A stretch of 64,000 nucleotides of DNA from an uncultured Actinomycetota bacterium (GCA_963700925.1 OY969553.1:1612459-1676458), one strand, 5' to 3'. Numbered from the stretch's first letter, positions 2,446-15,416 are shown. The notes: generated by a model not told the origin, from the letters alone. Made by a program: numbers and translations.

Positions 2446-4569
2446 ATGCTGCACCAGGCGATGCTCAGGCCCTCCTCACACTCCCGGCCGCGCAAGGGAC
2501 TGCTCGCCGTTTCCGCCGTGGCGCTGATGAGCTCTCTCGGCACTCCGGCCGTCCAAGCGGCAGCCCCACCACCGGGTTTCAGCGACGTCACTGCCTACAC
2601 CGTCACGAACCCGACGGCGCTGGCGTCGACTCCCGACGGTCGCCTGCTCATCACGCAGGACGCGGGCCAGCTGCGGGTGGTCCGCAACGGAACGCTGCTC
2701 ACCGCCCCCGCCGTCAACCTCCAGCCGCGCGCCTGCGCCGAAGGCGAGCGTGGGCTGATGGGGGTGGCCGTCGACCCGGCGTTCTCGACGAACTCGTTCA
2801 TCTATCTCTTCTGGACGTTCAACAAGCAGCAGTTCTGCGGCGAGGGCACGCCCCAGACGCCGGTGAACCGCGTGACGCGGTTCGTACTGGGGGCCGACGA
2901 CCGCGTCGTCGCCGGCACCGAACGCGTGATCGTCGACAACATCCCCTCGCCCAGCCGCAACCACCAGGCCGGAGACCTGCGTTTCGGCTCCGACGGCTTC
3001 CTGTACGTCACCACCGGGGATGGCGGCTGCACCATCGGCAGCCCGACGGCGTGCGGGGGACTGAACACCAACAGCCGGCGCCTCGACATCCTCAGCGGCA
3101 AGGTGCTGCGGGTCCGGCGCGACGGCACCATTCCGGCCAGCAACCCGTTCGCCGCCACGACAGGCGGCCGTCGCTGCGGGAATCCCGCGGGAGTGCCCGC
3201 GGGCACCGGCCGGTGCCGCGAGACCTTCGCCTCGGGCTTCCGCAACCCGTTCCGATTCGCCGTGCGTCCCGGCACCAGCAGCTTCCTGGTCAACGACGTG
3301 GGACAGGACACGTGGGAGGAGGTCGACGCGCTCGTGGCCGGTCGCGACTACGGCTGGAACGTCCGTGAGGGCAACTGCGTTCGCGACTCCACGACCAACT
3401 GCGGCGCCACCCCGTACGAGAACCCGATCTTCTCCTACAGCCACGCCGACGGCTGCTCGTCGATCACCGGCGGCGCCTTCGTGCCCGAGGGTCTCTGGCC
3501 GGCGCCCTGGAACGGGTCGTACATCTTCGCCGACTACGTGTGCGGCGGCATCTACCGGATGGCGCCCGCGACCGGCGGCGGCTACACCCGCGAGCCGTTC
3601 CTTCCTGACGTCGCGGGCGCTGTGCACCTGGCGTTCGCGCCGTTCACTGGCGGCACCGGAGGCACGGCCCTCTACTACCTCGACTACTTCGGCAACGCCA
3701 TCCACCGTGTGACCTACGGAGACACCAACACTCAGCCGACCGCGAGCTTCACCAACCGTCCTGCCGGGCTGCAGGTGAGCTTCGACGGCAGCGCGAGCCA
3801 GGACGCCGACCCGGGCGACTCCATCGCCGAGTACAGATGGATGTTCGGAGACGGCACGACGGCGACGACCACGACGCCGACCGTCAACCACACCTACGCA
3901 ACGGCCGGCACGCGTACCGCGACACTCCGGGTCGTGGACTCCTCGGGGCTCGTGTCCGCCGCCGTGACCCGTCCGGTCTATGCCGGAGAGTGGCCGCCGG
4001 AGATCACGGTTGCATGGCCGGCCACCACGGCGCGCTTCACCGTCGGCCAGTCCGTCACGCTGACCGCCACGGCCCGCGATACCGAGGACGGCACCCTGCC
4101 CGGCTCGGCCATCACGTGGACCGCGCAACGGCGTCACGGCACGCACTTCCATCCGTACGCGGGGCCACGCACCGGTTCGTCGTTCACCTTCACCTACCCC
4201 GCCCCGGAGAACCTCGCGGCCGCCGCGAACAGCCACATCTTCGTGACCGCGACCGCGCGCGACTCCCGTGGCCTGACCACGTCGTCGAGCCGGGATCTGC
4301 TCCCCCGCACGGTGGCGCTGTCCTTCGCCACCTCGCCGGCCGGCGGTTCGGTGCTCGTCGAAGGGACAGCGCGCACGACGCCGCTGACACTCACCTCGTG
4401 GGTGGGCGGCCCGGTGCAGGTCAACGTGCTCAACCAGACCATTGGCGGTGTGCCGCACGTCTTCTCGTCGTGGTCCGACGGCGGCACGCGCGCCCACCGC
4501 ATCACCTCGCCCGCGACGGCGACGACGTACACCGCGCGTTTCGTCCCCGGAACCGGTACGGCCCGTTGA
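2446..4569 (+). CDS. PQQ-dependent sugar dehydrogenase (soluble glucose/sorbosone dehydrogenase beta-propeller family) with C-terminal PKD and Ig-like regions, secreted
   Basis: 707-aa ORF. Signal-like N-terminus (LLAVSAVALMSSLGTPAVQAA). Family motifs GERGLMGVAVDPAF, HQAGDLRFGSDGFLYVTTGDGG, GFRNPFRF, DVGQDTWEEV..GRDYGWNVREG. PKD segment VSFDGSASQDADPGDSIAEYRWMFGDGTT..HTYATAGTRTATLRVVDSSG. Confidence 0.85.
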   Translation: MLHQAMLRPSSHSRPRKGLLAVSAVALMSSLGTPAVQAAAPPPGFSDVTAYTVTNPTALASTPDGRLLITQDAGQLRVVRNGTLLTAPAVNLQPRACAEGERGLMGVAVDPAFSTNSFIYLFWTFNKQQFCGEGTPQTPVNRVTRFVLGADDRVVAGTERVIVDNIPSPSRNHQAGDLRFGSDGFLYVTTGDGGCTIGSPTACGGLNTNSRRLDILSGKVLRVRRDGTIPASNPFAATTGGRRCGNPAGVPAGTGRCRETFASGFRNPFRFAVRPGTSSFLVNDVGQDTWEEVDALVAGRDYGWNVREGNCVRDSTTNCGATPYENPIFSYSHADGCSSITGGAFVPEGLWPAPWNGSYIFADYVCGGIYRMAPATGGGYTREPFLPDVAGAVHLAFAPFTGGTGGTALYYLDYFGNAIHRVTYGDTNTQPTASFTNRPAGLQVSFDGSASQDADPGDSIAEYRWMFGDGTTATTTTPTVNHTYATAGTRTATLRVVDSSGLVSAAVTRPVYAGEWPPEITVAWPATTARFTVGQSVTLTATARDTEDGTLPGSAITWTAQRRHGTHFHPYAGPRTGSSFTFTYPAPENLAAAANSHIFVTATARDSRGLTTSSSRDLLPRTVALSFATSPAGGSVLVEGTARTTPLTLTSWVGGPVQVNVLNQTIGGVPHVFSSWSDGGTRAHRITSPATATTYTARFVPGTGTAR

Positions 4570-5834
4570 CGGCAGGGACCAACTGGGCCGGCAACGTCGC
4601 CTTCTCTGCGGTCGGGCGACCGCGGCCGACGTCGGTCGCGGAGCTGCAGCGGGTCGTGGCTCGAGCGGCAAGGGTGCGAGCGCTCGGCACCGGCCACTCG
4701 TTCAACCGGATCGCTGACACCACAGGCGATCTCGTGTCGTTGGACGCGTTGCCACACACCATCGAGGTCGACTTGGATCGCCTCCAGGTCGAGGTGGGCG
4801 GCGGCGTGCGGTACGGCGAGCTCGGTCACGAGCTCGAGCGCCGAGGGTTGGCACTGCCCAACACAGGTTCTCTGCCGCACATCTCCGTGGCCGGTGCTTG
4901 CGCCACCGGCACTCACGGTTCGGGCGTCGGCAACCAGACCTTGGGGGCGCGCGTCCGGGCGTTGTCACTCGTGACAGCCTCCGGCGACGTGGTCACCCTC
5001 GAACGGGAGGCCGGCGACGAGTTCGACGGCGTCGTCCTTGCACTAGGACGGCTGGGCGTCGTGGTGTCTCTCGTCCTCGATCTGGTTCCGACGTTCCAGG
5101 TTGCCCAGACCGTGGTGGACGACGTCGACGACGCGGTGCTGGCAGACGGTCTCGGGGCGATCCTCTCGGCCGCATACTCCGTCAGCATCTTCACCGGCTG
5201 GGGCGCAGAAGGGCGGAACCAGGTCTGGGTCAAGGAGCGCGTCGACCGGCCAGATGCGTGGCAGGGCCAGACGCTCTGGGGAGGGCGGGCCGCGGAGGTC
5301 GAGCGACATCCGATCACCGGGATGCCCCCAGGAAACACGACGGCTCAGCTCGGTGCCCCTGGCCCGTGGAACGAGCGGCTCCCGCTGTTTCGCCTCGAGT
5401 TCATGCCGAGCAGCGGCGACGAGCTGCAGTCCGAGTACCTGCTACCGCTCGAGCACGCCGGGTCTGCCTGGCACGCCCTGTCCGACATGCGGGAGTTCCT
5501 GCGGCCGGTCGTCCAGATCTCCGAGATCCGCGCCGTTGCTCCCGACTCGATGTGGCTGAGCATGACCGGCGGTCTGCCCAGCGTCGCCTTCCACTTCACC
5601 TGGGTGCCGGACAAGATGGCCGTTGCCCCGAGAGTCGCGGAGGTTGAGGAGCGCCTGCAGCCGTTCGCGGCGCGACCACACTGGGGAAAGGTCTTCAGCA
5701 TGACCCCTGCGGCCTTGGCCCGCCTCTACCCACACCTTCCGGACTTTCGCCGTCTGGTCGTGGACGCGGACCCGACAGGAAAGTTCGGCAACGACCTGGT
5801 CGATGGCTGGATCGGCTTGGCGTCCGAGGCCTAG
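4566..5834 (+). CDS. FAD-dependent alditol (xylitol/sorbitol) oxidase, VAO family
   Basis: Real part of track ORF 3837..5834. TTG 4566 overlaps the upstream stop (TTGA, 4566-4569). The sequence TNWAGNVAFSA..LGTGHSFN..LPHISVAGACATGTHGSGV..PGPWNERLPLFRLEFMPSSGDELQSEYLLP..ARPHWGKVF tracks the Streptomyces alditol oxidase sequence as I remember it. Confidence 0.85.
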   Translation: MTAGTNWAGNVAFSAVGRPRPTSVAELQRVVARAARVRALGTGHSFNRIADTTGDLVSLDALPHTIEVDLDRLQVEVGGGVRYGELGHELERRGLALPNTGSLPHISVAGACATGTHGSGVGNQTLGARVRALSLVTASGDVVTLEREAGDEFDGVVLALGRLGVVVSLVLDLVPTFQVAQTVVDDVDDAVLADGLGAILSAAYSVSIFTGWGAEGRNQVWVKERVDRPDAWQGQTLWGGRAAEVERHPITGMPPGNTTAQLGAPGPWNERLPLFRLEFMPSSGDELQSEYLLPLEHAGSAWHALSDMREFLRPVVQISEIRAVAPDSMWLSMTGGLPSVAFHFTWVPDKMAVAPRVAEVEERLQPFAARPHWGKVFSMTPAALARLYPHLPDFRRLVVDADPTGKFGNDLVDGWIGLASEA

Positions 5835-6406
5835 CGCAGCTGGCGGCGCATCACCACACGGGTGGGAGACCGGCGGACCACTTCTTTGAAACCGGCTCTC
5901 TCGTAAAGGCTTCGCGAGCCGAAGAACATGAAGTCGTCGTGACTTCGCTCCGGCTTGTCGACCGGGTAGGCCTCGAGTATCCGGACGCGCTGTTCCCTCG
6001 CGTAGCGAACCGCCGCTCGGAGAAGTCGGTGCTGGACGCCCTGACCGCGGTATGGCTTGGCCACGAACGTGCACACGATCGACCACACCTCCTTGTCGTC
6101 CACCGGCTTCATGATCCGAGACCGTCGGAGCTTCTCGTAGTCACCGCGGGGACCGAGGCTGATCCACCCGGCTGGTGACCCGTCCACGTAGCCGACCAGG
6201 CCGGGGACGACGCCGGTGTCGACGAGCTCGCACAGCTGCCGCTTGTTGTCCTCTCCCGCAGCGGCACTGACGGACACCATCCCGCTCCTGCGGTAGTACA
6301 TGCACCAGCAGCCACGCACGATGGAACCACCGGGGAGGTCGAACACTGCCTCCAGGTCGGCCAAGGTCCCGGGCGTCAGCGGTTTGGCGTCGAAGGCGAC
6401 GGCCAT
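5831..6406 (-). CDS. GNAT family N-acetyltransferase
   Basis: 191-aa ORF starting at ATG 6406. Acetyl-CoA binding-type segment VAKPYRGQGVQHRLLRAAVRYAREQ and C-terminal LYERAGFKEV. Starts 9 nt after the stop of the upstream gene, so it may be the last gene of the 14546->6416 operon. Its stop overlaps the convergent oxidase stop (CTAG at 5831-5834). Confidence 0.8.
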   Translation of the reverse strand: MAVAFDAKPLTPGTLADLEAVFDLPGGSIVRGCWCMYYRRSGMVSVSAAAGEDNKRQLCELVDTGVVPGLVGYVDGSPAGWISLGPRGDYEKLRRSRIMKPVDDKEVWSIVCTFVAKPYRGQGVQHRLLRAAVRYAREQRVRILEAYPVDKPERSHDDFMFFGSRSLYERAGFKEVVRRSPTRVVMRRQLR

Positions 6407-6415
6407 GCAGCCACG

Positions 6416-7048
6416 CTAGCTTCCGCCGCGCGTCAGACCCAGGGTCGCCAACAGGTCCTCATGCAACTCGAACCAGACCGTGTGGCACGAGTCCATCTTC
6501 GGCTCGTCCACCCACTTCCGTTCTCCCCTGTCGACCCGGGCGAGCGCGGCACTGAAGCGGTCGGCGTACCCCGCGAAGCGAGAAAGCTTCGCGGACAGGC
6601 GTTCCTCGATGGGCCTCAGCCTTCGCGACAGGCCGGCCAGGCCGTTGAGCACGCCCTCGTCCCAAGGCCAGTCGCTGTGATCGTTAGACGCCATGGGATC
6701 CCGGGCCGTCGGGCGGATCTGCCAACGAGTGATCGCATCGAGCAGTCTGGCGTTCAAGGGGACGAAGGCAGCGTGCGCCTCGACAACGACGGCACGGCCG
6801 TCCGCCTCCCGCAGCTCCCCTGCGAGCAGCCGCTCGTCGCGCTCACGTCCCGCCGGCGTGAGGGACCAGCTGCGCAGGTCCGCGAACTCCACCTTCTGCA
6901 CCAGACCCGCGGCCTCGTAGTCCAGCAGGTGCTCCTGAACAGCCGCACGGTCCAACGAGTATCGCCGCGTGACGACGTCCTCGTCCGCCATGCCCTTGAT
7001 GCGGACCGCATGCAGGACGAGCAGCTCAACCGACGACGGAAAGGACAT
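6416..7048 (-). CDS. Hypothetical protein with N-terminal winged-helix-like segment (operon gene E)
   Basis: In-frame ATG at 7048 (MSFPSSVELLVLHAVRIKGMADEDVV..LLDYEAAGLVQKVEF..WSLTPAGRERDE), 4 nt after the TPR gene stop (7053). The longer track ORF (to 7198) would overlap the TPR gene. The wHTH call is motif-level only. Confidence 0.65.
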   Translation of the reverse strand: MSFPSSVELLVLHAVRIKGMADEDVVTRRYSLDRAAVQEHLLDYEAAGLVQKVEFADLRSWSLTPAGRERDERLLAGELREADGRAVVVEAHAAFVPLNARLLDAITRWQIRPTARDPMASNDHSDWPWDEGVLNGLAGLSRRLRPIEERLSAKLSRFAGYADRFSAALARVDRGERKWVDEPKMDSCHTVWFELHEDLLATLGLTRGGS

Positions 7049-7052
7049 CGGC

Positions 7053-10000
7053 CTACGACTTCGCGCCGGCTCCCTGTCGGACGTCGACCTCCGTGGCCCA
7101 GGGCGGCTCGTCGGGAAAGGCCAGCTGCTCGTGGTTCCACTCCGACTCGACGAGCCGGAGCTCCTCCTGCAGCCGTCCGTGGAGCCAGCTCGCGGCACCT
7201 TGCGTGACGTCCGGGAGGCTCGGTCTTGACACCAGGAAGTCGTCGAGGGCGATGAGCAGCGTTCCTCTCCTCATCGGTGGCACCTCGCGAACGAGGTCCT
7301 CGATCGCCCTGACGGCGTAGGAGCGTGCCTGTGACGTCTGCTTCGCGCCCAGGGCTGCCAGGGCCAGGTCGAAGAGCGTGCCGGAGGTCTGTTCCGCATA
7401 GAGGAGCACGTGGTGGAGGGCGCTGGCCGCCTCGGAGTACCGGCCCAGCCGGAAAAGGCACCAACCTTCGAGGGCGGACGAGGTCCAGTCCGTGGAGACC
7501 TGCCTCCGCAGCGTCCCCAGGACCGACTCGTACTCGGCCAGCGCTTCCTCGCGCCTGTCCAGCAGGACAAGCGAGTTCGCCCGACCCTTGCGGGCCCACA
7601 GGTCGCCGTCGTCCAGTCGCAGAGCCTCGTCGTACGCCTCCAGGGCGGCCGTGGCCCTGTCCGGCCGATCCGAGTGCTCCAGTGCCCAGCCCAAGGACTG
7701 GTACGCGTTCGGCTGCTGCCACTCGCACTTCGTGGACCTGCCGGCGGCAAAGATGGCCTCTTCCCATCCACCGACGCGCGTAGCCACCGCACTGACGACG
7801 ATCCATCCCGCGGGGTTGTCCTCGTTTCGCTTCACGGCTCGGAGCGAGATGTCCCATGCCCCACCGATGTCCCCAGAGTTCAGCAGGGCATAGGCGAGGT
7901 CGACGAACGACTCGACGCCACCTCCCGAGGGGAGGGCCTCGGCCAGGTCTACGGCGCGACGGAAGCAGTCCAGGGCCTCCTCGACCCGATTGACGAGAGT
8001 CAGCACCGAGCCCATCGCACTCAGACCTCGCAGGTCATCCGGCCTGATCCACAGGGCCTGGTCCAGTGCTGCCAAGGCCTCGTCGGTCCTGCCGGCACCA
8101 CGCAACGCCCCTGCGTAGCTGATCAAGAGGTCGGCGTCCTGCTCGTCCTCGTTCAGGGCGGCCCGATACACCTCGACCGCTTCCTCGGCGCGGCCCGACG
8201 CGAGCAGCAGATCGGTGAGATGTGAGGCAGCGAATGAGTTTCTGGGTTCGATCGCCAGGGCCTGCCGCAGGGCCTTTTCGCCCTCCTCGGCGTCACCCTG
8301 GGAGCTCAGGACGGCGCCTCGCGAACCCAGCGCCCAGGCAGAGTTCGGCTCCTGCTCCAGGGACTTGTCCAGCCAGTTCAACGCCTCCTCATAGTGACCT
8401 TGGACGCGATGGATCTCACCGAGAAGGCGCCAGGCTCTGACTCCCCATTCCGGGCTGGACGCCAAGCGCTCCGCTTCGGACCCGGCAAGCTGGAACTGCT
8501 TGAGGTTCATCAAGGCACTGGCGTGGAGGTACCTCGCCATCTCGTCGTTCTCGTCGCGCCGCAGCGACTCCTCGCTGAAGGTCCGCGACTCCTCAGCGCG
8601 GTCGGTGTCGATCAGGTACTCCGCGAGCTCGTTCCGCACGTCACGCAGCTCCGGGTCCAGCTGAAGGGCCTTGCGGAGCATTCGCTCAGCCTTTTCAGGA
8701 TGCCCTTCCTGCTTGCGAATCTCGGCGCGCATCAACCAAGGACGAGCACTCGTGGCATCGAGCTTGGCCAGCGCCTTCAAGGCGATGTCGGCTCGCTTGT
8801 AGTCGTCTGCTCCGAGGTAGGCGTTCACCAACAGGTCGTGCATCCAGACCGACTGCGGAGAGATCTTGGTGGCCGCCTCGATGTTGCTGATCGCCTCCTC
8901 GGTTCGCTCGCCGATCGCCAGCAGTGCTTGACCACGGCTGGCGAGGGCGTAGGAGTCCGAAGCATCGAGGTCGAGCGCGGAGTCGAAGTGGGTGACGGCC
9001 TCCTTGAGCCGCCCCTGCAGTCGCAGTGACTCGCCGAGAAGCTCGTGCAGAAGCGGTGCTGATCGGTCCACTTCCAAGGCCGCTTCCAGCAGCTCCTGCG
9101 CGCGCGTCCAGGATGCCGGGTCCTTTTCGATCAGCAGCAGACCAGCCAGGTCTGCGCGGGTCGCTACCGATGCCGGCTCGAGCTCAAGGGCCTTCTCGTA
9201 CGCGTGCTTCGCTCTCGCGGTGTCGTCTGTCGCGACCTCCGCTCGGGCCAGGTTGACCCATACCCACGCCGCTCCAGCGTCCATCTCGACGGCTCGTCGC
9301 AAGTGGTGGCGCGCCTCCTCCGCGTTCCCCGAGTCGAGCAGCAGCTTTCCCAGGAGCGCATGGGCAACGGAATACTCCGGGTGTTCCGCGATCAGTGTCA
9401 GCAGGTCGTCGCGCGCGCGGTCGCCACTCCCGAGCACAGCCAGCGCATTGGCCCGACGTGCGCGCCTCCAGGGGGATGGATCGAGTGCGGCAGCCGCTTC
9501 GAACTGGTGCAGGGCCGCCTCGTGGCTCCCGGACTCAGCGAGGGCCTCCCCCAGGAGGCCGCGAAGCACAGGTGAGTTGGGATCTACCTCTGCCGCTTCC
9601 GTCAGTGCCAGGGCGGCTTCCGGGGCTCGACCGATCCTCAGGAGCCCGAGCCCCCGGTAGGCAGCGGCGGCGGGGAGCCCCACCACGGCCATTCGCTCGG
9701 AGAGACCCAGCAGCTCCTCGAACCGCTCAGCGGATTGAAGGACGTACGCATGCCGCTCGAGCAGGTCGGTGTCCTCGGGCGAGAGGTCCAGTGCGGCCGA
9801 GGACGCCTCGATGGCCTCGTCGTGACGTCCAAGAGACGTCAGGATCTCTGCGGCGAGCATTGACGTCGCCGACTGCGGCTCGATCTCATTCAGCTCTCGG
9901 AGGGTGTCCAGGGCGGCCATCGCGTGGCCGGCCCTCGCCTGCGCCACTGCGAGCCAGTAGTGCGTCTGCGGAGATGGGTCCAGGTCATGGACGCGACGGA

Positions 10001-10718
10001 TGGCGTCCAAGGCGGCGTCGTGCCGGTCGGCATCTGCGAGAGCGAGCCACGCGCCTCGCCAGTGCTCTGCCCGCGTCTCGTCGCTCTCCCCCAGATCATC
10101 CGCGAGGCGCGCCATCAGGATCCACGCCCGCCAGTCGTGGACGGCACGGGGAACGGCCTGCTGCAGGTACTCGTAGGCTTCGTGCTGACGTCCCTGCTCG
10201 GCGATTGCGGTGGCAAGGTGGCGACGCAGGTCGGGCGTGTCCTCGCCTTGTTCGAACGCGAGGTGCAGGACGGTCTCCGCCTCGGCCTGCCGACCGACGC
10301 CCAGCAGCGCGACGCCCCGTGCATAGGTCACGACGCCACGCCGAACGGCCGAACCGCCGTCATCGAACGCCTGCAGAGCCTTCACAAAGGCCTCCCGGGC
10401 GCGCTCCGCCTCGCCGCGCTCGGCCAGCGCCCGTCCATCCAGCACGTAGGCCGAACCCTGCAGGGCAAGCCCTTCTGCCGGCAGACGTCGCCCCGGGGAG
10501 GTGGACGAGGGGCTCAGCTCACGCAGCACCTCGAGAGACGTCGCTTCAGCGAGCTCCAGGTCTCCAGCTTGGAGGGCGGCCCTTCCCTCGCTGAGGCGGG
10601 ACCACAGCTCGGGGTCGAATGCACTTTCCTGGTCGCGCTGCCGTGCGGCGTACGGCGGACTGGTCGGCCAGGCTGGAGCGGGTACGACAGCATCCCCCTG
10701 GGCTCCCCGCCCCGTCAT
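7053..10718 (-). CDS. Very large all-TPR repeat protein, 1221 aa (operon gene D)
   Basis: Track ORF 7053..10841. I prefer ATG 10718, which forms ATGA with the upstream stop (10715-10718) and has AGGAGG 6 nt upstream. The sequence is TPR-like helical hairpins (A..A...Y..AL.L.P) from end to end. I recognised no enzymatic, NTPase or TM region. Confidence 0.85.
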   Translation of the reverse strand: MTGRGAQGDAVVPAPAWPTSPPYAARQRDQESAFDPELWSRLSEGRAALQAGDLELAEATSLEVLRELSPSSTSPGRRLPAEGLALQGSAYVLDGRALAERGEAERAREAFVKALQAFDDGGSAVRRGVVTYARGVALLGVGRQAEAETVLHLAFEQGEDTPDLRRHLATAIAEQGRQHEAYEYLQQAVPRAVHDWRAWILMARLADDLGESDETRAEHWRGAWLALADADRHDAALDAIRRVHDLDPSPQTHYWLAVAQARAGHAMAALDTLRELNEIEPQSATSMLAAEILTSLGRHDEAIEASSAALDLSPEDTDLLERHAYVLQSAERFEELLGLSERMAVVGLPAAAAYRGLGLLRIGRAPEAALALTEAAEVDPNSPVLRGLLGEALAESGSHEAALHQFEAAAALDPSPWRRARRANALAVLGSGDRARDDLLTLIAEHPEYSVAHALLGKLLLDSGNAEEARHHLRRAVEMDAGAAWVWVNLARAEVATDDTARAKHAYEKALELEPASVATRADLAGLLLIEKDPASWTRAQELLEAALEVDRSAPLLHELLGESLRLQGRLKEAVTHFDSALDLDASDSYALASRGQALLAIGERTEEAISNIEAATKISPQSVWMHDLLVNAYLGADDYKRADIALKALAKLDATSARPWLMRAEIRKQEGHPEKAERMLRKALQLDPELRDVRNELAEYLIDTDRAEESRTFSEESLRRDENDEMARYLHASALMNLKQFQLAGSEAERLASSPEWGVRAWRLLGEIHRVQGHYEEALNWLDKSLEQEPNSAWALGSRGAVLSSQGDAEEGEKALRQALAIEPRNSFAASHLTDLLLASGRAEEAVEVYRAALNEDEQDADLLISYAGALRGAGRTDEALAALDQALWIRPDDLRGLSAMGSVLTLVNRVEEALDCFRRAVDLAEALPSGGGVESFVDLAYALLNSGDIGGAWDISLRAVKRNEDNPAGWIVVSAVATRVGGWEEAIFAAGRSTKCEWQQPNAYQSLGWALEHSDRPDRATAALEAYDEALRLDDGDLWARKGRANSLVLLDRREEALAEYESVLGTLRRQVSTDWTSSALEGWCLFRLGRYSEAASALHHVLLYAEQTSGTLFDLALAALGAKQTSQARSYAVRAIEDLVREVPPMRRGTLLIALDDFLVSRPSLPDVTQGAASWLHGRLQEELRLVESEWNHEQLAFPDEPPWATEVDVRQGAGAKS

Positions 10719-12193
10719 GATCCGCCTCCTGCATCCCTGGTCCGCCGATCCCTGGCGGGGGGAATGCGACCTTCCCAGATCTCCGTCACGCCGGCTGCCA
10801 GCACGTCTGGCTCGCGTTCCTTGTCCAGGCGAGCGGCCCATGCCGCATTGAGGATCTCGAGAAGGTCGTCAGGGCTGTCCAGCAGTGGGCTCTTCTGACC
10901 ACCGAGAAGGGAAACCTTGCGCTTCACGACCTGCGACCACTGAGAGTCCGTGAACGCTGCGATCGCCAAATTCGATCTGAGGACGACGAGAACGTCTCTC
11001 TGGAAGTCATCGAGCCAGTCTTCCTCAGGCTTCGGAGCGAGTTCTCGTTCTGCCTCTTCCTGACGCGCCGGGCCTGCGAGCGTGGTGACGGCGTCGCGCC
11101 AGATCCCGTCCAGCTTTCGGATGGTGGTGGCGAATCCGGTGTCCGGGTCCCCAGCGTTGGAGCGGAGGACCCCCAGGATCAGCCGAGCGCGGTCGACGTC
11201 GCGCGCCTGATCAGGTTGCGACGCCTCGTCGTGGTGGGGCTGCAAGCGCAGGAGGAGGGCTGCACAGCCGTACGCCGGGCCCATCGTGAACGCAGCAAAG
11301 GCGTCACCGACCAGTTCGGAGAAGGTGGTTGTTGCGCCCAATCCGTCCTGGCCACCCCACTTGCCCAGAAGCCCTTGCACCCCTTCCTCGTTCTTGTCCG
11401 CGCACAGCGCAAGACCCACCTCGTGCGCGACGAGGGGGATGCCCCATACGGACCACTCCGGGAAGCCGAGCTTGACCACGCTGTCCATGGCGCTGCTGAG
11501 GGCAGCCTGCGCCGCCGGGATCGGGAAGAAGTGAGTGACGATGGCGGTGAAGCTTCGGAGCAGAACCTCGGTCATCTCGCACACGCGGTCGTCCAGACCG
11601 GTGTCGCGAACCGTCAGACCACCGAGAAAGTCGACGTACTCACGAAACAGCGGTTGCGCCTCTTCCACGAGCATCGTCTCAAAGCGCTGCCAGAGAACTC
11701 GCTGGTCCCCGGCCGACCCGTTGCCCACATCCTGCTCCAGGACAGAAATGGTCCGGTAGAGCTTGTCGCATCGGCTACTGAGGCTGTTCTCGAGCTGGGC
11801 CGACCGGCCGCTCAGATCCACCATGTTCTTCTGGATCCCCAGGAGCTTGTCGCGAGCTTCGCGCAACTGCTCCTTGATTCCCTCGAACTCCTGAGGAGCT
11901 ACCTCCAAACGCTCGAGCAGGACGGACCCTGGCACGGCCCCCTGGGCGTTCTTGATCTCCTGCGCGATGTCGTCATAGTCACCGAGCAGGTCCCGGAGGC
12001 TGAACACCAGATTGCTGAGGGTGCTCAGAGGGGTGAGAACACCCTGCGAACCGGTCATACCAATGAGGCGCGCGACTTCGAGGATCTGGACGTCTCTGCC
12101 GTTGACCAACGTGACGGCCGTCTGCACCTTTCCCACGTCACTTCGCAGGGTTCTGAGCCTCAGCTTGAGCAGCTCTTGCGCCGGTGTGCTCAT
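10715..12193 (-). CDS. Paralogue of the HExxH protein with degenerate metal-binding motif (HEVGL) and coiled-coil-like N-terminal extension (operon gene C)
   Basis: ATG 12193 forms ATGA with the upstream stop (12190-12193), with GAGGAGG 7 nt upstream. It aligns to gene B: LGFPEWSVWGIPLVAHEVGLALC vs LKFPGTTAWHLPVLAHEYGHHAV; SELVGDAFAAFTMGPAYGCAALLLRLQP vs NEYVADMFATFALGTAYPLTCIALRIDP; ILNAAWAAR vs VLDAAWRWR. Confidence 0.8.
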   Translation of the reverse strand: MSTPAQELLKLRLRTLRSDVGKVQTAVTLVNGRDVQILEVARLIGMTGSQGVLTPLSTLSNLVFSLRDLLGDYDDIAQEIKNAQGAVPGSVLLERLEVAPQEFEGIKEQLREARDKLLGIQKNMVDLSGRSAQLENSLSSRCDKLYRTISVLEQDVGNGSAGDQRVLWQRFETMLVEEAQPLFREYVDFLGGLTVRDTGLDDRVCEMTEVLLRSFTAIVTHFFPIPAAQAALSSAMDSVVKLGFPEWSVWGIPLVAHEVGLALCADKNEEGVQGLLGKWGGQDGLGATTTFSELVGDAFAAFTMGPAYGCAALLLRLQPHHDEASQPDQARDVDRARLILGVLRSNAGDPDTGFATTIRKLDGIWRDAVTTLAGPARQEEAERELAPKPEEDWLDDFQRDVLVVLRSNLAIAAFTDSQWSQVVKRKVSLLGGQKSPLLDSPDDLLEILNAAWAARLDKEREPDVLAAGVTEIWEGRIPPARDRRTRDAGGGS

Positions 12194-13431
12194 CTCCGTG
12201 CCTCCTCGGACCCTGCGGGAGAGAGCACTGGCAGACCCTTCCCTGCGGTTCGGCACCAGCTGAGCACCGTCGTGTTGACGCGTCGTAGCTCAGACGCGTC
12301 CGCCGCCCAGTTGGCGCGACGCCAGCGCCACGCCGCGTCGAGCACCGTTGGCACCCCTGCCTCCTCGAGCTCGCGCGGCGCCCCGTCCCCCGCAACCAGG
12401 CGATCCTTCAGCGCGACCGCAAGGTCGGCATCGTCGTAGAGCAGCCCATCGGTGTGGCGCAGGAGCTCGACGACGACGCTCTCGGCGAGCTGCCGCAGGA
12501 TCGCGGCTTGATCGTCCGCATGGTGGCCGGCGAAGCGCGCCCAGAGGGGCCGGACGACCTCAGCCGCCATGGCGGCGTGCTGATCTTGGCCGGTGCGCGC
12601 GCTGATGGCCTCGAGCGTCGCGGCCATCGCCTCCACACGGCGAAACCACACCGGATGGCTGTCACTCTGGCGCGCCGCCTTGCCCGGGTCGATCCGCAGC
12701 GCGATGCACGTGAGCGGGTACGCGGTGCCGAGGGCGAAGGTCGCAAACATGTCCGCCACGTACTCGTTGACCTGTGACCGTGCCGCACGAAGCGCTGCCG
12801 CGCGGGCGTGTGACGTGGCCGCCGATTGGGCATTCGGCGCCTGGGCCAGGGCGACCTCCGACACGACGGCAGCCTCACGCTCGACGACGTCGTAGAGCGG
12901 TCGGACTTCTCGGGCCCCTTCGTTGATGCTGTACAGGTTGCTCACGGCGTGGTGCCCGTACTCGTGCGCAAGCACCGGGAGGTGCCAAGCAGTGGTGCCA
13001 GGAAACTTCAGGCGCAGCATCGACACGACCGGATCCATGGTCTCTGCGTCGGGGGAGAGTGCCAGCACCACTGGGCGGCGGATCAGTGAGTGGGCCTGCA
13101 GGTGTGATGCCAGCCGGTCGGCGGCGTCGAGAAGCGCGCCGTCGTACCCCTGTTCCCGGAAGAGCGTCGTCTGGACGAGGCTGAAGAGCTCCGTCCGCAC
13201 TCTCGCCGCTCGTTTGCGCGCATCGCCGAATGCGACCCAGTCCACCCCATCCTGCTGCAGGGACAGGTCTTTCCGGCAGTCGCGAATCAGAGCGCGGACC
13301 TCACCCGCGGAGCTGGCCGGCAGGATGTCGCGCAGGTGCGGAGTGTCAAGGAAGGCCTCCGCACGCTCCAGGTCGTCGAGCTCGACAGCCAGTCGAGCGG
13401 CGTAGAGCTGTTCAGCCTCAGGGATCGTCAC
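12190..13431 (-). CDS. HExxH...ExxAD metallopeptidase-like protein (M48/M56-like motif arrangement) (operon gene B)
   Basis: Track ORF 12190..13443 (TTG start). GTG 13431 would give a GTGA overlap with the upstream stop (13428-13431); the start is uncertain between the two. Intact HEYGH, followed about 65 aa later by NEYVADMFA, which resembles the third-ligand ExxAD signature of M48-type peptidases. Confidence 0.75.
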   Translation of the reverse strand: MTIPEAEQLYAARLAVELDDLERAEAFLDTPHLRDILPASSAGEVRALIRDCRKDLSLQQDGVDWVAFGDARKRAARVRTELFSLVQTTLFREQGYDGALLDAADRLASHLQAHSLIRRPVVLALSPDAETMDPVVSMLRLKFPGTTAWHLPVLAHEYGHHAVSNLYSINEGAREVRPLYDVVEREAAVVSEVALAQAPNAQSAATSHARAAALRAARSQVNEYVADMFATFALGTAYPLTCIALRIDPGKAARQSDSHPVWFRRVEAMAATLEAISARTGQDQHAAMAAEVVRPLWARFAGHHADDQAAILRQLAESVVVELLRHTDGLLYDDADLAVALKDRLVAGDGAPRELEEAGVPTVLDAAWRWRRANWAADASELRRVNTTVLSWCRTAGKGLPVLSPAGSEEARR

Positions 13432-14546
13432 GCGGGTACCCAAGCATCGCGCACCACGACGCGCACTCCCGGAACGAAACCAGGAATCGGTCGGGCGTCG
13501 GTGTAGTCCAGGCCCAGCAGGAGGACGGCGGCAGCCACGAGGAGGAAGGCACCGGCCGTCACCAGCGCGAGGTGAGGTACGCCAAACCCCAAGAACGACA
13601 CGAGAACTGACACTGATCCGATCGCGGTGACGATGCCCGACGCGATCTTCATCAGCGACGAGTACCGCTCGCCCAGTCCACGTAGGGCACCCACCGCGAG
13701 GTCCAGTCGTTCGAGTCTTGCCTGCGGGTGGGGCAGCTGCAGTGCGTACTTCCGCACGTCCTCGACGCCGATCAGCCAGCCGAGCACCGCCGGCGCGGGC
13801 TCGCCCGCCTGCAGGCGTGCGGCCAGTGTGCGCATCTCTTCCTTGGCCTCCCGCAAGAGGTTGATGGGGAAGAGTCGCGTCAGCACGGTCAGGGCTTTGT
13901 CGATGGTCGCGAGACCCAGCTTCGTGAGCCGTTGAGCGTTCTGGCCGAAGTCGAGCTTGCTTCCGAGCTGGTCGATCAGCTCGCTGAGCTTGCCCGGTGC
14001 GCGAGCGAGGACGGCGGTCATGGCCTCGGTCACCACGCCGGCAGACGCCTCCGCGAGCTCTTCGAGGGTCGCGTCGAGCTGCTGGGTCAGACGCTCGGCG
14101 GCCTGCGTGAGGTCGGCCGAGGGCTCGACTGGTTCGAAGCCCTGGCTGTGGGCTTCAGGCCTGGCCCGGTCGTCGAGACTGTCAGCGACCTTGTTCAGCG
14201 TGGTCACGGCCTCGCCCAGTGCCTGGTCGTCCCTGGCCACGCCGCCCTCACCGAGAGCCTGCCCGGCGGCGAGCAGGGCATTGCCGATGGACAGGTCAGC
14301 GAGGACCTCGGCGAGGACGTCGTCCTCAGTCACGCCCTCCTCGGCGGCCGGGCCTGTCTCATCCTCGGCGTCCTCGAACCGCTGGGGGCCAGGCATGTCA
14401 CTACCGAGGCGGCGGCGTGCGATGACTTCGAGTCGCTCCACGATCAGCGGGTCGGGAACAGGCGACGTGGCGAGTGCTCTCTGGAGCAAAGCAGATCCGT
14501 TTGCGACGGACCGAGTGGATTCGGCCAGGGCCATCATGTGCGTCAT
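13428..14546 (-). CDS. Acidic helical protein with two C-terminal transmembrane helices (operon gene A)
   Basis: 372-aa ORF from ATG 14546 (alternative ATGs at 14537/14534). The C-terminus has two hydrophobic stretches, IASGIVTAIGSVSVLVSFLGF and LALVTAGAFLLVAAAVLLLGL. The rest is Ala/Leu/Glu-rich and helix-like. I recognised no family. Confidence 0.7.
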   Translation of the reverse strand: MTHMMALAESTRSVANGSALLQRALATSPVPDPLIVERLEVIARRRLGSDMPGPQRFEDAEDETGPAAEEGVTEDDVLAEVLADLSIGNALLAAGQALGEGGVARDDQALGEAVTTLNKVADSLDDRARPEAHSQGFEPVEPSADLTQAAERLTQQLDATLEELAEASAGVVTEAMTAVLARAPGKLSELIDQLGSKLDFGQNAQRLTKLGLATIDKALTVLTRLFPINLLREAKEEMRTLAARLQAGEPAPAVLGWLIGVEDVRKYALQLPHPQARLERLDLAVGALRGLGERYSSLMKIASGIVTAIGSVSVLVSFLGFGVPHLALVTAGAFLLVAAAVLLLGLDYTDARPIPGFVPGVRVVVRDAWVPA

Positions 14547-14787
14547 CCTGCAAGCCTCTCGCCGTAAGACAGACCGATTGTTGCGGATGCTTCACAATCT
14601 GTCAGCCCGAAGCCTTACTTGCGAGGAGCACCGCGAGTCGCTGGTGATACGGCTCGGCTCGGGCATGCTCCGCCGGTCGCCGCCACGACGAGCATCGGTC
14701 CGGCGGTCAGGTATTTCGCGACGTCCCTCGTCCTCTTTCTGACAGCCTCCTCACCCGCCTGGAGGCACGAGCCGACAGGGAGGAACC

Positions 14788-15129
14788 GTGTCAAGCGTTC
14801 TGGTCAACTGCAGCTACTGCGAAGCCACTTCTGACGTTCCCGCGGCCGGCGTCCTCCTCGACATCCAGGCCGCCGCCCTGAGCTGGGTCTGTCTCGAGTG
14901 CGGTGAGCTCGACGAGCAAGACGTTCCGCCACACATGCTGCAGAAGCTCATCGACGTTGGCGCGTCGCTGATCACGTCCGACGTGGGAAGCCTTCCGCCG
15001 CACCCCGAGTCCCCGCCCCACGGCGAGCCGCTCACTCACGACGACCTTCTCGACCTCCACGAGCTGCTCGAGGAGCCGTCCTGGCTCATTCGGCTCGAGG
15101 GCACGTCACATCAATGCAATTCGGACTGA
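14788..15129 (+). CDS. Small zinc-ribbon-like protein (CxxC...CxxC), hypothetical
   Basis: GTG 14788 preceded by GGGAGGA. N-terminal CSYC..(23 aa)..CLEC pair, and an acidic C-terminus. Transcribed divergently from the 14546 operon across a 241-bp intergenic region. Confidence 0.6.
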   Translation: MSSVLVNCSYCEATSDVPAAGVLLDIQAAALSWVCLECGELDEQDVPPHMLQKLIDVGASLITSDVGSLPPHPESPPHGEPLTHDDLLDLHELLEEPSWLIRLEGTSHQCNSD

Positions 15130-15416
15130 GTGGACGTCGCTTTTCTCGACCCGTTGCCGGCGACGGCCACCGACGACCAGAGCGATGCCCAGCGCCAGCG
15201 TGAAGACTGCGAGCTCGAGATGGGTGCCGACAGGCGAGCCGGTGCGGGCCAGCTGTCGCGCCTACGCCAGGGCCAGCGCGATGGGCCTGGGGCGACAACG
15301 TCGAAGGAACCGCGCGTACGTCGCCACTCTGGGAAGTGATGGGTGATAAGTCCCCAGAACGGACGCAACGTGCCGAACTGACCCGCAGGGTGTCACGTGG
15401 CAGGGTGAAACTCGTG

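Follow-up and report, generated by a model that had tools for sequence, protein, structure and literature searches.

The operon and its junctions

The 64,000-nucleotide stretch of DNA analysed here (GCA_963700925.1 OY969553.1:1612459-1676458; hereafter the window) comes from an uncultured Actinomycetota bacterium. It contains a run of closely packed minus-strand genes encoding a helical membrane protein (g1), a protein with an HExxH motif (g2), a paralogue of g2 (g3) and a very long tetratricopeptide repeat (TPR) protein (g4), followed by genes for a winged helix-turn-helix (wHTH) regulator (g5) and a GNAT acetyltransferase (Table 1). The first four genes form a conserved cassette, in which g2 has the motifs of an M48-like zinc metallopeptidase and g3 is predicted to be its inactive counterpart.

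The initial annotation, made from the sequence alone, had described g1 to g5 as one tightly coupled operon that matched no named system, joined by GTGA, ATGA and ATGA overlaps and a 4-nt gap. The list of open reading frames (ORFs) returned all five genes at the positions it had given, and reading of the sequence reproduced each junction. The GTG start of g2 overlaps the TGA stop of g1 as GTGA (13428-13431); g2 and g3 share an ATGA at 12190-12193 with GAGGAGG upstream, and g3 and g4 share another at 10715-10718 with AGGAGG upstream, so that both Shine-Dalgarno sequences reported as embedded in the preceding genes are present. The TAG of g4 is separated from the ATG of g5 by a 4-nt gap (7049-7052), and the GNAT gene follows g5 after 9 nt, as had been claimed. 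For g2, the N-termini of homologues (MTLP...) favour the GTG start over the TTG at 13443. A consensus scan of positions 5500-15300 found one promoter-like site, upstream of g1, and no internal promoter or terminator matches within the operon. The description as a single coupled operon without a catalogued equivalent was retained. The only hydrophobic stretch among the five proteins is in g1 (residues 297-351), with none in g2 to g5.

Table 1. Genes and sequence features of the locus, in positions of the window.
Feature	Position	Strand	Length	Remarks
g1	13428-14546	minus	372 aa	First cassette gene
g2	12190-13431	minus	413 aa	GTG start; TTG at 13443 is an alternative start
g3	10715-12193	minus	492 aa	
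g4	7053-10718	minus	1221 aa	
g5	6416-7048	minus	210 aa	MarR-like wHTH regulator, same orientation as the cassette
GNAT acetyltransferase gene	5831-6406	minus		Outside the conserved cassette
Promoter-like site CTGACA-17-AACAAT	14577..14605	minus		About 30 nt upstream of g1; consensus match alone
g2 HEYGH (H156, E157, H160)	12952-12966	minus		Invariant in 100/100 family members
g2 EYVAD (E223, D227)	12751..12765	minus		ExxAD motif; E223 in 99/100, A226 in 93/100, D227 in 100/100
g2 HPVWFRR (H259, P260, R265)	12637..12657	minus		HPx4R active-site plug motif, invariant in 100/100
g3 HEVGL	11411-11425	minus		First His kept in 50/51, Glu in 51/51
g1 hydrophobic hairpin, residues 297-351	13494..13658	minus		Two transmembrane helices joined by GVPH
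g1 motif 1, QRFED	14370..14384	minus		Consensus (Q/R)GF(E/D); F57 nearly invariant
g1 motif 2, QGFEP	14130..14144	minus		Same linker motif; F137 nearly invariant

Conservation and distribution of the cassette

A g2 query against a collection of 5.8 billion proteins returned just two further clusters, and the contigs of both carry the order g1-g2-g3-g4 in wholly different surroundings, without g5 or the GNAT gene; a g3 query matched 60 clusters. The g2 profile matched 1003 cluster representatives (50% identity) at E <= 1e-3 among 1.84 billion, 563 of them at E <= 1e-10, and the best 150 of the 1003 matches are mostly 340-420 aa long. In the synteny test, the window proteins were compared with all ORFs of 33 places by phmmer and iterated hidden Markov model searches. 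The order g2-g3-g4 is kept in all 33 places, and a g1 homologue lies upstream of g2 in 22 of them, the window's own contig included, whereas matches to g5 and the GNAT gene came from no contig other than that of the window. Called-gene junctions across the loci range from about -14 to +18 nt. Among places examined after the synteny test, the full four genes are present in Kribbella, in Lentzea, in two contigs with the same flanks as the Bryobacterales locus, and in a distant metagenome contig, whose g2 (profile E 7.7e-22) still has g1, g3 and a TPR gene next to it.

These results confirmed the expectation that the gene order would recur elsewhere with a patchy distribution, but not the proposed five-gene unit. 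Because neither g5 nor the GNAT gene occurs at any other locus, the five genes resolve into a conserved unit of four and a lineage-specific passenger, g5; like the GNAT gene, g5 is a neighbour peculiar to this genome. A five-gene sensor-protease-effector module, in which g5 would serve as the output or be cleaved as the substrate, much as in ImmA/ImmR or IrrE/DdrO, would be in keeping with zinc proteases that are known to cleave helix-turn-helix (HTH) repressors in those two systems. The place of g5, 4 nt after g4 on the same strand with no terminator-like site between them, and its MarR-like character would suit such a role. However, besides the absence of g5 and the GNAT gene from other loci, the gene after g4 in the called-gene tables of other contigs is usually unrelated and often on the opposite strand, g5 homologues occur without the cassette, beside genes for phosphoenolpyruvate (PEP)-utilising enzymes, and Pfam gave no Peptidase_M78 (ImmA/IrrE) match among the members of the g2 alignment. 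Synteny largely refutes the five-gene module, which we consider highly improbable.

Conservation of this kind also bears on the question of whether the genes are real. High-GC DNA yields many long spurious ORFs, and 64 ORFs are listed in this stretch, so chance adjacency of unrelated ORFs, or mis-called ORFs in GC-rich DNA, was weighed as an explanation. It is scarcely credible: same-order homologues occur in dozens of genomes, the third codon position has the highest G+C content (GC3) in each cassette gene, the ratio of nonsynonymous to synonymous divergence (dN/dS) is 0.10-0.23 for all four genes among three Kribbella species, g3 included, and the AlphaFold2 (AF2) model of g2 has a pLDDT of 93.9.

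The taxonomic range was surveyed in one genome per species with the g3 alignment and two short peptide patterns, and the resulting counts are lower bounds. At least 28 loci were found among 185,579 species genomes. They include four Kribbella, Cellulomonas biazotea, Actinoplanes, one Streptomyces, Umezawaea and Nonomuraea, together with metagenome-assembled genomes (MAGs) assigned to Blastococcus, Propionibacteriales, Solirubrobacterales, Acidimicrobiales and, in three cases, Acidobacteriota. The loci further include a g2-g3-TPR triad on CAYXSJ010000126.1 (7589 bp, 40% GC), a contig binned as a Methanotrichaceae archaeon, which reflects either mistaken binning or a transfer between domains.

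Loci of an outer clade (Blastococcus, Solirubrobacterales and Acidimicrobiales) lack g1; their g2 is preceded by unrelated genes, variously for an aldehyde dehydrogenase, a methyltransferase, and proteins with DUF3048 or resembling DUF1345. Only g2, g3 and g4 thus make up the invariant core, to which the main clade has added g1. In two Solirubrobacterales loci (L027, 7796-8716, and L030, 8979-9773), the gene just upstream of g2 encodes a membrane protein of 264-306 aa with a C-terminal transmembrane (TM) segment and sub-threshold similarity to DUF1345; it may be an alternative membrane partner that replaces g1, or merely a conserved neighbour. Another triad without g1, on contig_1334 of an Acidimicrobiaceae MAG (loci L041/L028; 8001-13688 of L041), encodes a g2 with an N-terminal extension of about 107 aa. 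It is preceded by phage integrase and Zn_ribbon_recom genes and followed by IS110-family transposase genes, with many small unannotated ORFs around it, and it probably lies inside a mobile island.

The M48 motif set of g2

On the evidence of its sequence, g2 is called a divergent M48-like zinc metallopeptidase here, not a certified PF01435 member, and it looks like an active HExxH enzyme. Three elements define the M48 family, namely the HExxH zinc ligands, a further Glu located on a helix downstream of them, and the active-site plug HPx4R, and its published pattern is H-E-x-x-H-x(30,140)-H-P-x(4)-R (PMC7950410). In BepA, the plug His acts as a fourth zinc ligand and keeps the enzyme autoinhibited until it is displaced, and E201 of the E. 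coli M48 ExxAD motif is the third ligand (PMC7950410). g2 has HExxH, ExxAD and HPx4R in the same order and at compatible spacing to the M48 members HtpX, BepA, LoiP, YcaL and Ste24 (PF01435). Nine positions are invariant in the alignment of 100 g2 family sequences, including H156, E157, H160, D227, H259, P260 and R265, in agreement with the initial annotation of g2 as a plausible HExxH enzyme with HEYGH at the expected position. The published pattern matched 100/100 g2 sequences and the E. coli BepA and HtpX controls, compared with 0/51 g3 sequences and 0/5000 shuffles. In the four E. coli M48 paralogues, E201, A204 and D205 are invariant and form the same ExxAD as E223, A226 and D227 of g2. 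When only the core was aligned with these four paralogues by hhalign, the three motifs fell in register over 123-131 columns (prob 57%, E 1.1e-4). Peptidase_M48 was the sole recurrent weak match in Pfam, being found for 10 of the 100 g2 members over profile positions 68-183 of 186.

Modelled by AF2 with 100 homologues (pTM 0.92), g2 also resembles M48 enzymes in having three strands directly before the HExxH helix (152-165), and E223 and D227 fall on a later helix (207-234). Several features set g2 apart from the family. A core of about 150 residues alone aligns, with modest probability, and the helical regions on either side, about 115 residues N-terminal and 130 C-terminal, lack a counterpart. 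g2 also scores below the Pfam gathering threshold, is cytoplasmic and soluble, with neither a TM segment nor a signal peptide predicted, and is always paired with an inactive paralogue. A search of PDB sequences with the g2 profile gave coiled-coil noise only. No significant match was obtained for g1, g2 or g3 in Pfam, NCBIfam, PADLOC or PHROGs; in this respect the locus is unassigned, as had been stated, but the earlier view that it cannot be placed is too strong for g2, which carries the complete M48 motif set.

HExxH by itself does not define a peptidase. g2 could be another metal-dependent HExxH enzyme, such as a peptide-modifying hydroxylase or an amidase, in an operon that modifies a peptide or an envelope component bound by the TPR protein. 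The lack of a Pfam peptidase model above threshold for g2 and of a structural match would be compatible with such an enzyme. Nevertheless, the M48-specific motif trio is present with an invariant HPx4R plug, no NCBIfam HExxH peptide-maturation family was matched, and the cassette is not accompanied by any conserved gene for a precursor peptide, a radical-SAM enzyme or a transporter. We regard a non-protease function as improbable.

Two other peptidase identities were considered. An ImmA/IrrE-like identity, first suspected from an E...AD.FA motif, was dropped: neither g2 nor any of the 100 family members had an M78 match, the M48 plug motif is an exact fit, and g5, the sole HTH gene, is absent elsewhere. 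The second candidate was Lit, which acts in phage exclusion. This HExxH enzyme, the cell-death peptidase (peptidase U49) of the e14 prophage, also fits the M48 plug pattern (PMC7950410). A Lit-like identity of g2 was rejected, as hhalign gave a prob of 1% over the HP...R stretch alone and no Pfam U49 match was listed; Lit also differs in being a single prophage gene.

g3 as a predicted inactive paralogue of g2

g3 is homologous to g2 over nearly its whole length (hhalign prob 100%, E 3.9e-46, 330 columns; BLASTP E 4e-7), apart from about 130 extra N-terminal residues. Its family has lost metal ligands throughout. The second His of HExxH is Leu or Val in 49/51 members, Met in 1/51 and His in 1/51, the Glu ligand position is variable (E in 23 and Q in 18 of the 51), and the His-Pro of the plug is replaced by Arg-Asp. 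With the second His, the Glu ligand and the His of the plug all lost, g3 cannot bind zinc in the M48 manner and is a predicted pseudopeptidase, which bears out its earlier description as a dead copy of g2. In most comparisons g3 is nonetheless the best-conserved protein of the cassette.

Pairs of active and inactive protease paralogues are common, as in Rpn11-Rpn8 and the alpha and beta subunits of the mitochondrial processing peptidase. The g2-g3 arrangement resembles these pairs in that an active enzyme is co-inherited with a conserved, ligand-deficient paralogue, the inactive partner being at least as conserved. The fold families are unrelated, however, and binding between g2 and g3 is putative.

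The TPR protein g4 and the membrane protein g1

TPR matches extend over g4 from about residue 170 to 1140 (TPR_19 E 8.7e-53, TPR_2 E 8.3e-52 and many others in Pfam), in line with the TPR scaffold that had been proposed, and no conserved non-TPR domain was seen in it. Its homologues measure 805-1237 aa, and g4 is the fastest-diverging gene of the cassette. PADLOC gave generic TPR matches only, and the NCBIfam BepA model matched g4 in its TPR part alone, far under the cut-off.

g1 is the sole membrane protein of the cassette; main-clade loci conserve it, and the outer triad clade lacks it. It is predicted to be all-helical, the AF2 model built from an alignment of 12 database homologues having medium confidence (pLDDT 64). 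Its sequence indicates that the N-terminal part is cytoplasmic and that two helices near the C-terminus form a membrane hairpin, after which comes a conserved cytoplasmic tail, DYT..P...G.R. The two (Q/R)GF(E/D) motifs both lie in low-pLDDT linkers, each after a similar helix, and the internal repeat is weak (hhalign E 1.5e-4, prob 51%). Motif 2 may be regarded as a candidate docking or cleavage site. A Foldseek search of g1 against PDB gave no match, and a relationship of g1 to g2 or g3 was rejected (hhalign prob <= 2%).

Composition and possible mobility

The initial annotation had seen a hint of foreign origin in hand counts of 37/60, 37/60 and 44/60 G+C, two inside g4 and one outside the cassette; these counts are exact. 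Over the full cassette (7053-14546), G+C is 67.3% compared with 69.4% for the window, and GC3 is 0.78-0.81 compared with 0.874 +/- 0.038 for 30 other long ORFs of the window, about two standard deviations lower. The lowest values are those of g3 (GC 63.7%, GC3 0.777). As a sign of foreign origin this is modest evidence, and the flanks at nine places are mostly ordinary chromosomal genes and not defence islands.

The flanks differ at nearly every locus, and Kribbella sp. NPDC051620 differs in this respect from three other Kribbella. Two loci from related MAGs have common flanks (L012 and L016). Their cassettes show a synonymous divergence (dS) of 0.86-1.17 compared with 0.45-0.55 for the flanks, the latter being measured on two flank genes only. 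With about twice the divergence of its surroundings, the cassette allele looks as if it were the older of the two, and exchange at a fixed site would be the implication. The cassette occupies about 7700-15400 in both loci, and the L012 flank genes are at 3060-4694 and 5701-7680. In a further MAG (MFD01275; L036, 1-16330), the cassette is located between rsmI-like methylase and PMT-family mannosyltransferase genes, in surroundings that are otherwise core-like (tatD, an rpf-like gene, ksgA, an ispE-type kinase gene and an ABC-F gene).

A protease switch as the proposed role of the cassette

We put the chance at about even that g1-g4 constitute a TPR-gated, membrane-tethered switch built around the M48-like protease on the cytoplasmic face of the membrane. 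As g2, g3 and g4 have no signal peptide or TM segment, the chemistry of the cassette is placed in the cytoplasm. In the proposed mechanism, g2 and g3 would pair as active protease and pseudoprotease and sit on the g4 TPR array, which would bind a trigger or substrate. Binding at the array would displace the plug of g2, and the freed enzyme could then cut g1 at or near its linker motifs, or another membrane-proximal target. Cleavage would alter the state of the g1 membrane hairpin. Given such a switch, the assignment of g1 as the protease substrate is tentative and rather unlikely. As to its setting, an accessory module for stress or conflict, exchanged horizontally, is most likely, ahead of core housekeeping, and this is the least certain step of the interpretation. 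In its favour are flanks that change from locus to locus, the triad between integrase and IS110 transposase genes, the occurrence across phyla, the low GC3 and the excess dS of the cassette.

Several results weigh against a protease switch of this kind in an accessory module. Full-length hhalign of g2 against BepA, HtpX or the four-paralogue alignment aligned the HExxH helix alone (prob 3.5-27%). g2 scored 13.1 bits against Pfam M48, below the gathering score of 20.3 (E 0.085), and Foldseek found no match for the confident g2 model in PDB or BFVD. In the outer clade the gene preceding g2 is unrelated to g1, and g1 is therefore not a universal substrate. Complex formation, g1 cleavage and the trigger are steps that we infer. 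As for a function in conflict, g1, g2 and g3 had no match in PADLOC-DB 2.0.0 when checked for defence systems. No recognisable defence genes were present within +/- 10 kb of the nine examined places, where the neighbours are mostly housekeeping or metabolic genes, and tblastn gave no match in 72,556 plasmids, searched with g2 and g3, or in 50,697 phages, searched with g3.

In chemistry the cassette comes closest to the M48 family (BepA, HtpX, Ste24), and in architecture to BepA, an M48 protease combined with TPR. The TPR domain of BepA mediates recognition of partners and substrates (PMC7950410). The cassette differs from it in that the TPR array is a separate protein of 800-1240 aa (g4), whereas that of BepA is a C-terminal domain of 12 helices; g2 is cytoplasmic without a hydrophobic N-terminus, whereas BepA is periplasmic; and the cassette adds the pseudoprotease g3 and the membrane-hairpin partner g1. 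Actinomycetota, which make up most cassette hosts, are not known to have BAM or LptD.

The parallel with BepA leads to a different view of the cassette, as a housekeeping quality-control system. A cytoplasmic counterpart of BepA or HtpX could survey or degrade misassembled membrane or secretory proteins, or could act in envelope or developmental remodelling, with g1 as an anchor and not a target. The M48 motif set of g2, the requirement of BepA for its TPR domain in partner and substrate recognition (PMC7950410) and the annotation of HtpX as a membrane-bound M48 protease would all agree with this view, as would purifying selection on the four genes and ordinary chromosomal flanks, such as the rsmI, tatD, rpf, ksgA and ispE-type genes around L036. 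On the other hand, the cassette is rare and patchy, with at least 28 loci in 185,579 species genomes and one Streptomyces among them, its flanks differ within one genus, and one copy is in an integrase/transposase island. A core function would not need a fast-diverging TPR array of 800-1240 aa, and the excess synonymous divergence of the cassette over its flanks does not fit it. We therefore hold housekeeping quality control to be a doubtful, if serious, alternative to the accessory protease switch.

Bacterial gasdermin operons place a membrane-active protein beside a protease with a TPR, LRR, WD40 or NACHT module, and cleavage releases the effector (bioRxiv 10.1101/2021.06.07.447441). The cassette has in common with these and other protease-gated operons the logic of a membrane protein encoded with a protease and recognition repeats. 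TPR-CHAT/Craspase is reportedly another such system in which cleavage releases an effector. g1 is not a gasdermin, being all-helical with a TM hairpin and without a Pfam or PDB fold match, and the cassette protease is a metallopeptidase, not caspase-like or CHAT, with the repeats on a separate protein. A more specific form of the switch would be an abortive-infection or conflict system in which g4, as a fast-evolving giant sensor, would recognise a protein of the invader and thereby open the His-Pro plug of g2 held by g3, after which g2 would cleave the g1 linkers and generate a membrane-disrupting effector. We think this quite unlikely; at the same low level of confidence, the cassette would then be a metalloprotease-gated, non-gasdermin analogue of gasdermin activation.

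Full-text searches of the literature returned no description of the g1-g4 cassette. In a paper on conflict systems from the Aravind group, searched for related terms, inactive zincin domains come up solely in another setting, fused to STAND (PMC8195603). The conclusion stands that, within the libraries and literature searched, the cassette is undescribed; as interpreted here, it represents a regulated M48-type protease with novel obligate partners. The g1, g2 and g3 families have no Pfam, NCBIfam, PADLOC or PHROGs model despite about 1000 g2 cluster representatives and a gene order kept across phyla. With the present results, proteins that were hypothetical gain a testable chemical assignment, g2 as an M48-type enzyme with a plug and g3 as an obligate, conserved pseudoprotease partner. 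How displacement of the plug regulates M48 enzymes is under active study in BepA, HtpX, Oma1 and Ste24, and a soluble cytoplasmic version with partner proteins of its own could be a tractable model of plug opening. If the cassette serves in conflict, a metalloprotease-gated membrane effector would be added to prokaryotic immunity; if it serves in quality control, it would be a new envelope-homeostasis complex in soil Actinomycetota and Acidobacteriota.

Genes next to the cassette in the window

The description of g5 as a wHTH-type protein was correct, and its family is MarR-like. The family is widespread, annotated as MarR or transcriptional regulator, and is found on actinomycete and proteobacterial replicons without the cassette. 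g5 itself had no significant match in Pfam, NCBIfam, PADLOC or PHROGs, its best PADLOC match being Csa3 at E 0.047. Its homologues (at least 20 matches, 29-52% identity) repeatedly lie beside PEP-utilising or pyruvate phosphate dikinase-like genes, which suggests a regulator-enzyme pairing separate from the cassette.

When a fifth conserved gene was sought among all loci, the candidates g5, the GNAT gene and a 113-aa ORF were each found on the window's own contig alone. The 113-aa ORF (14788-15129, plus strand) is divergent from g1 and has no family match. It encodes a Zn-ribbon-like protein with two CxxC pairs (CSYCE...CLECG) and an acidic C-terminal half.

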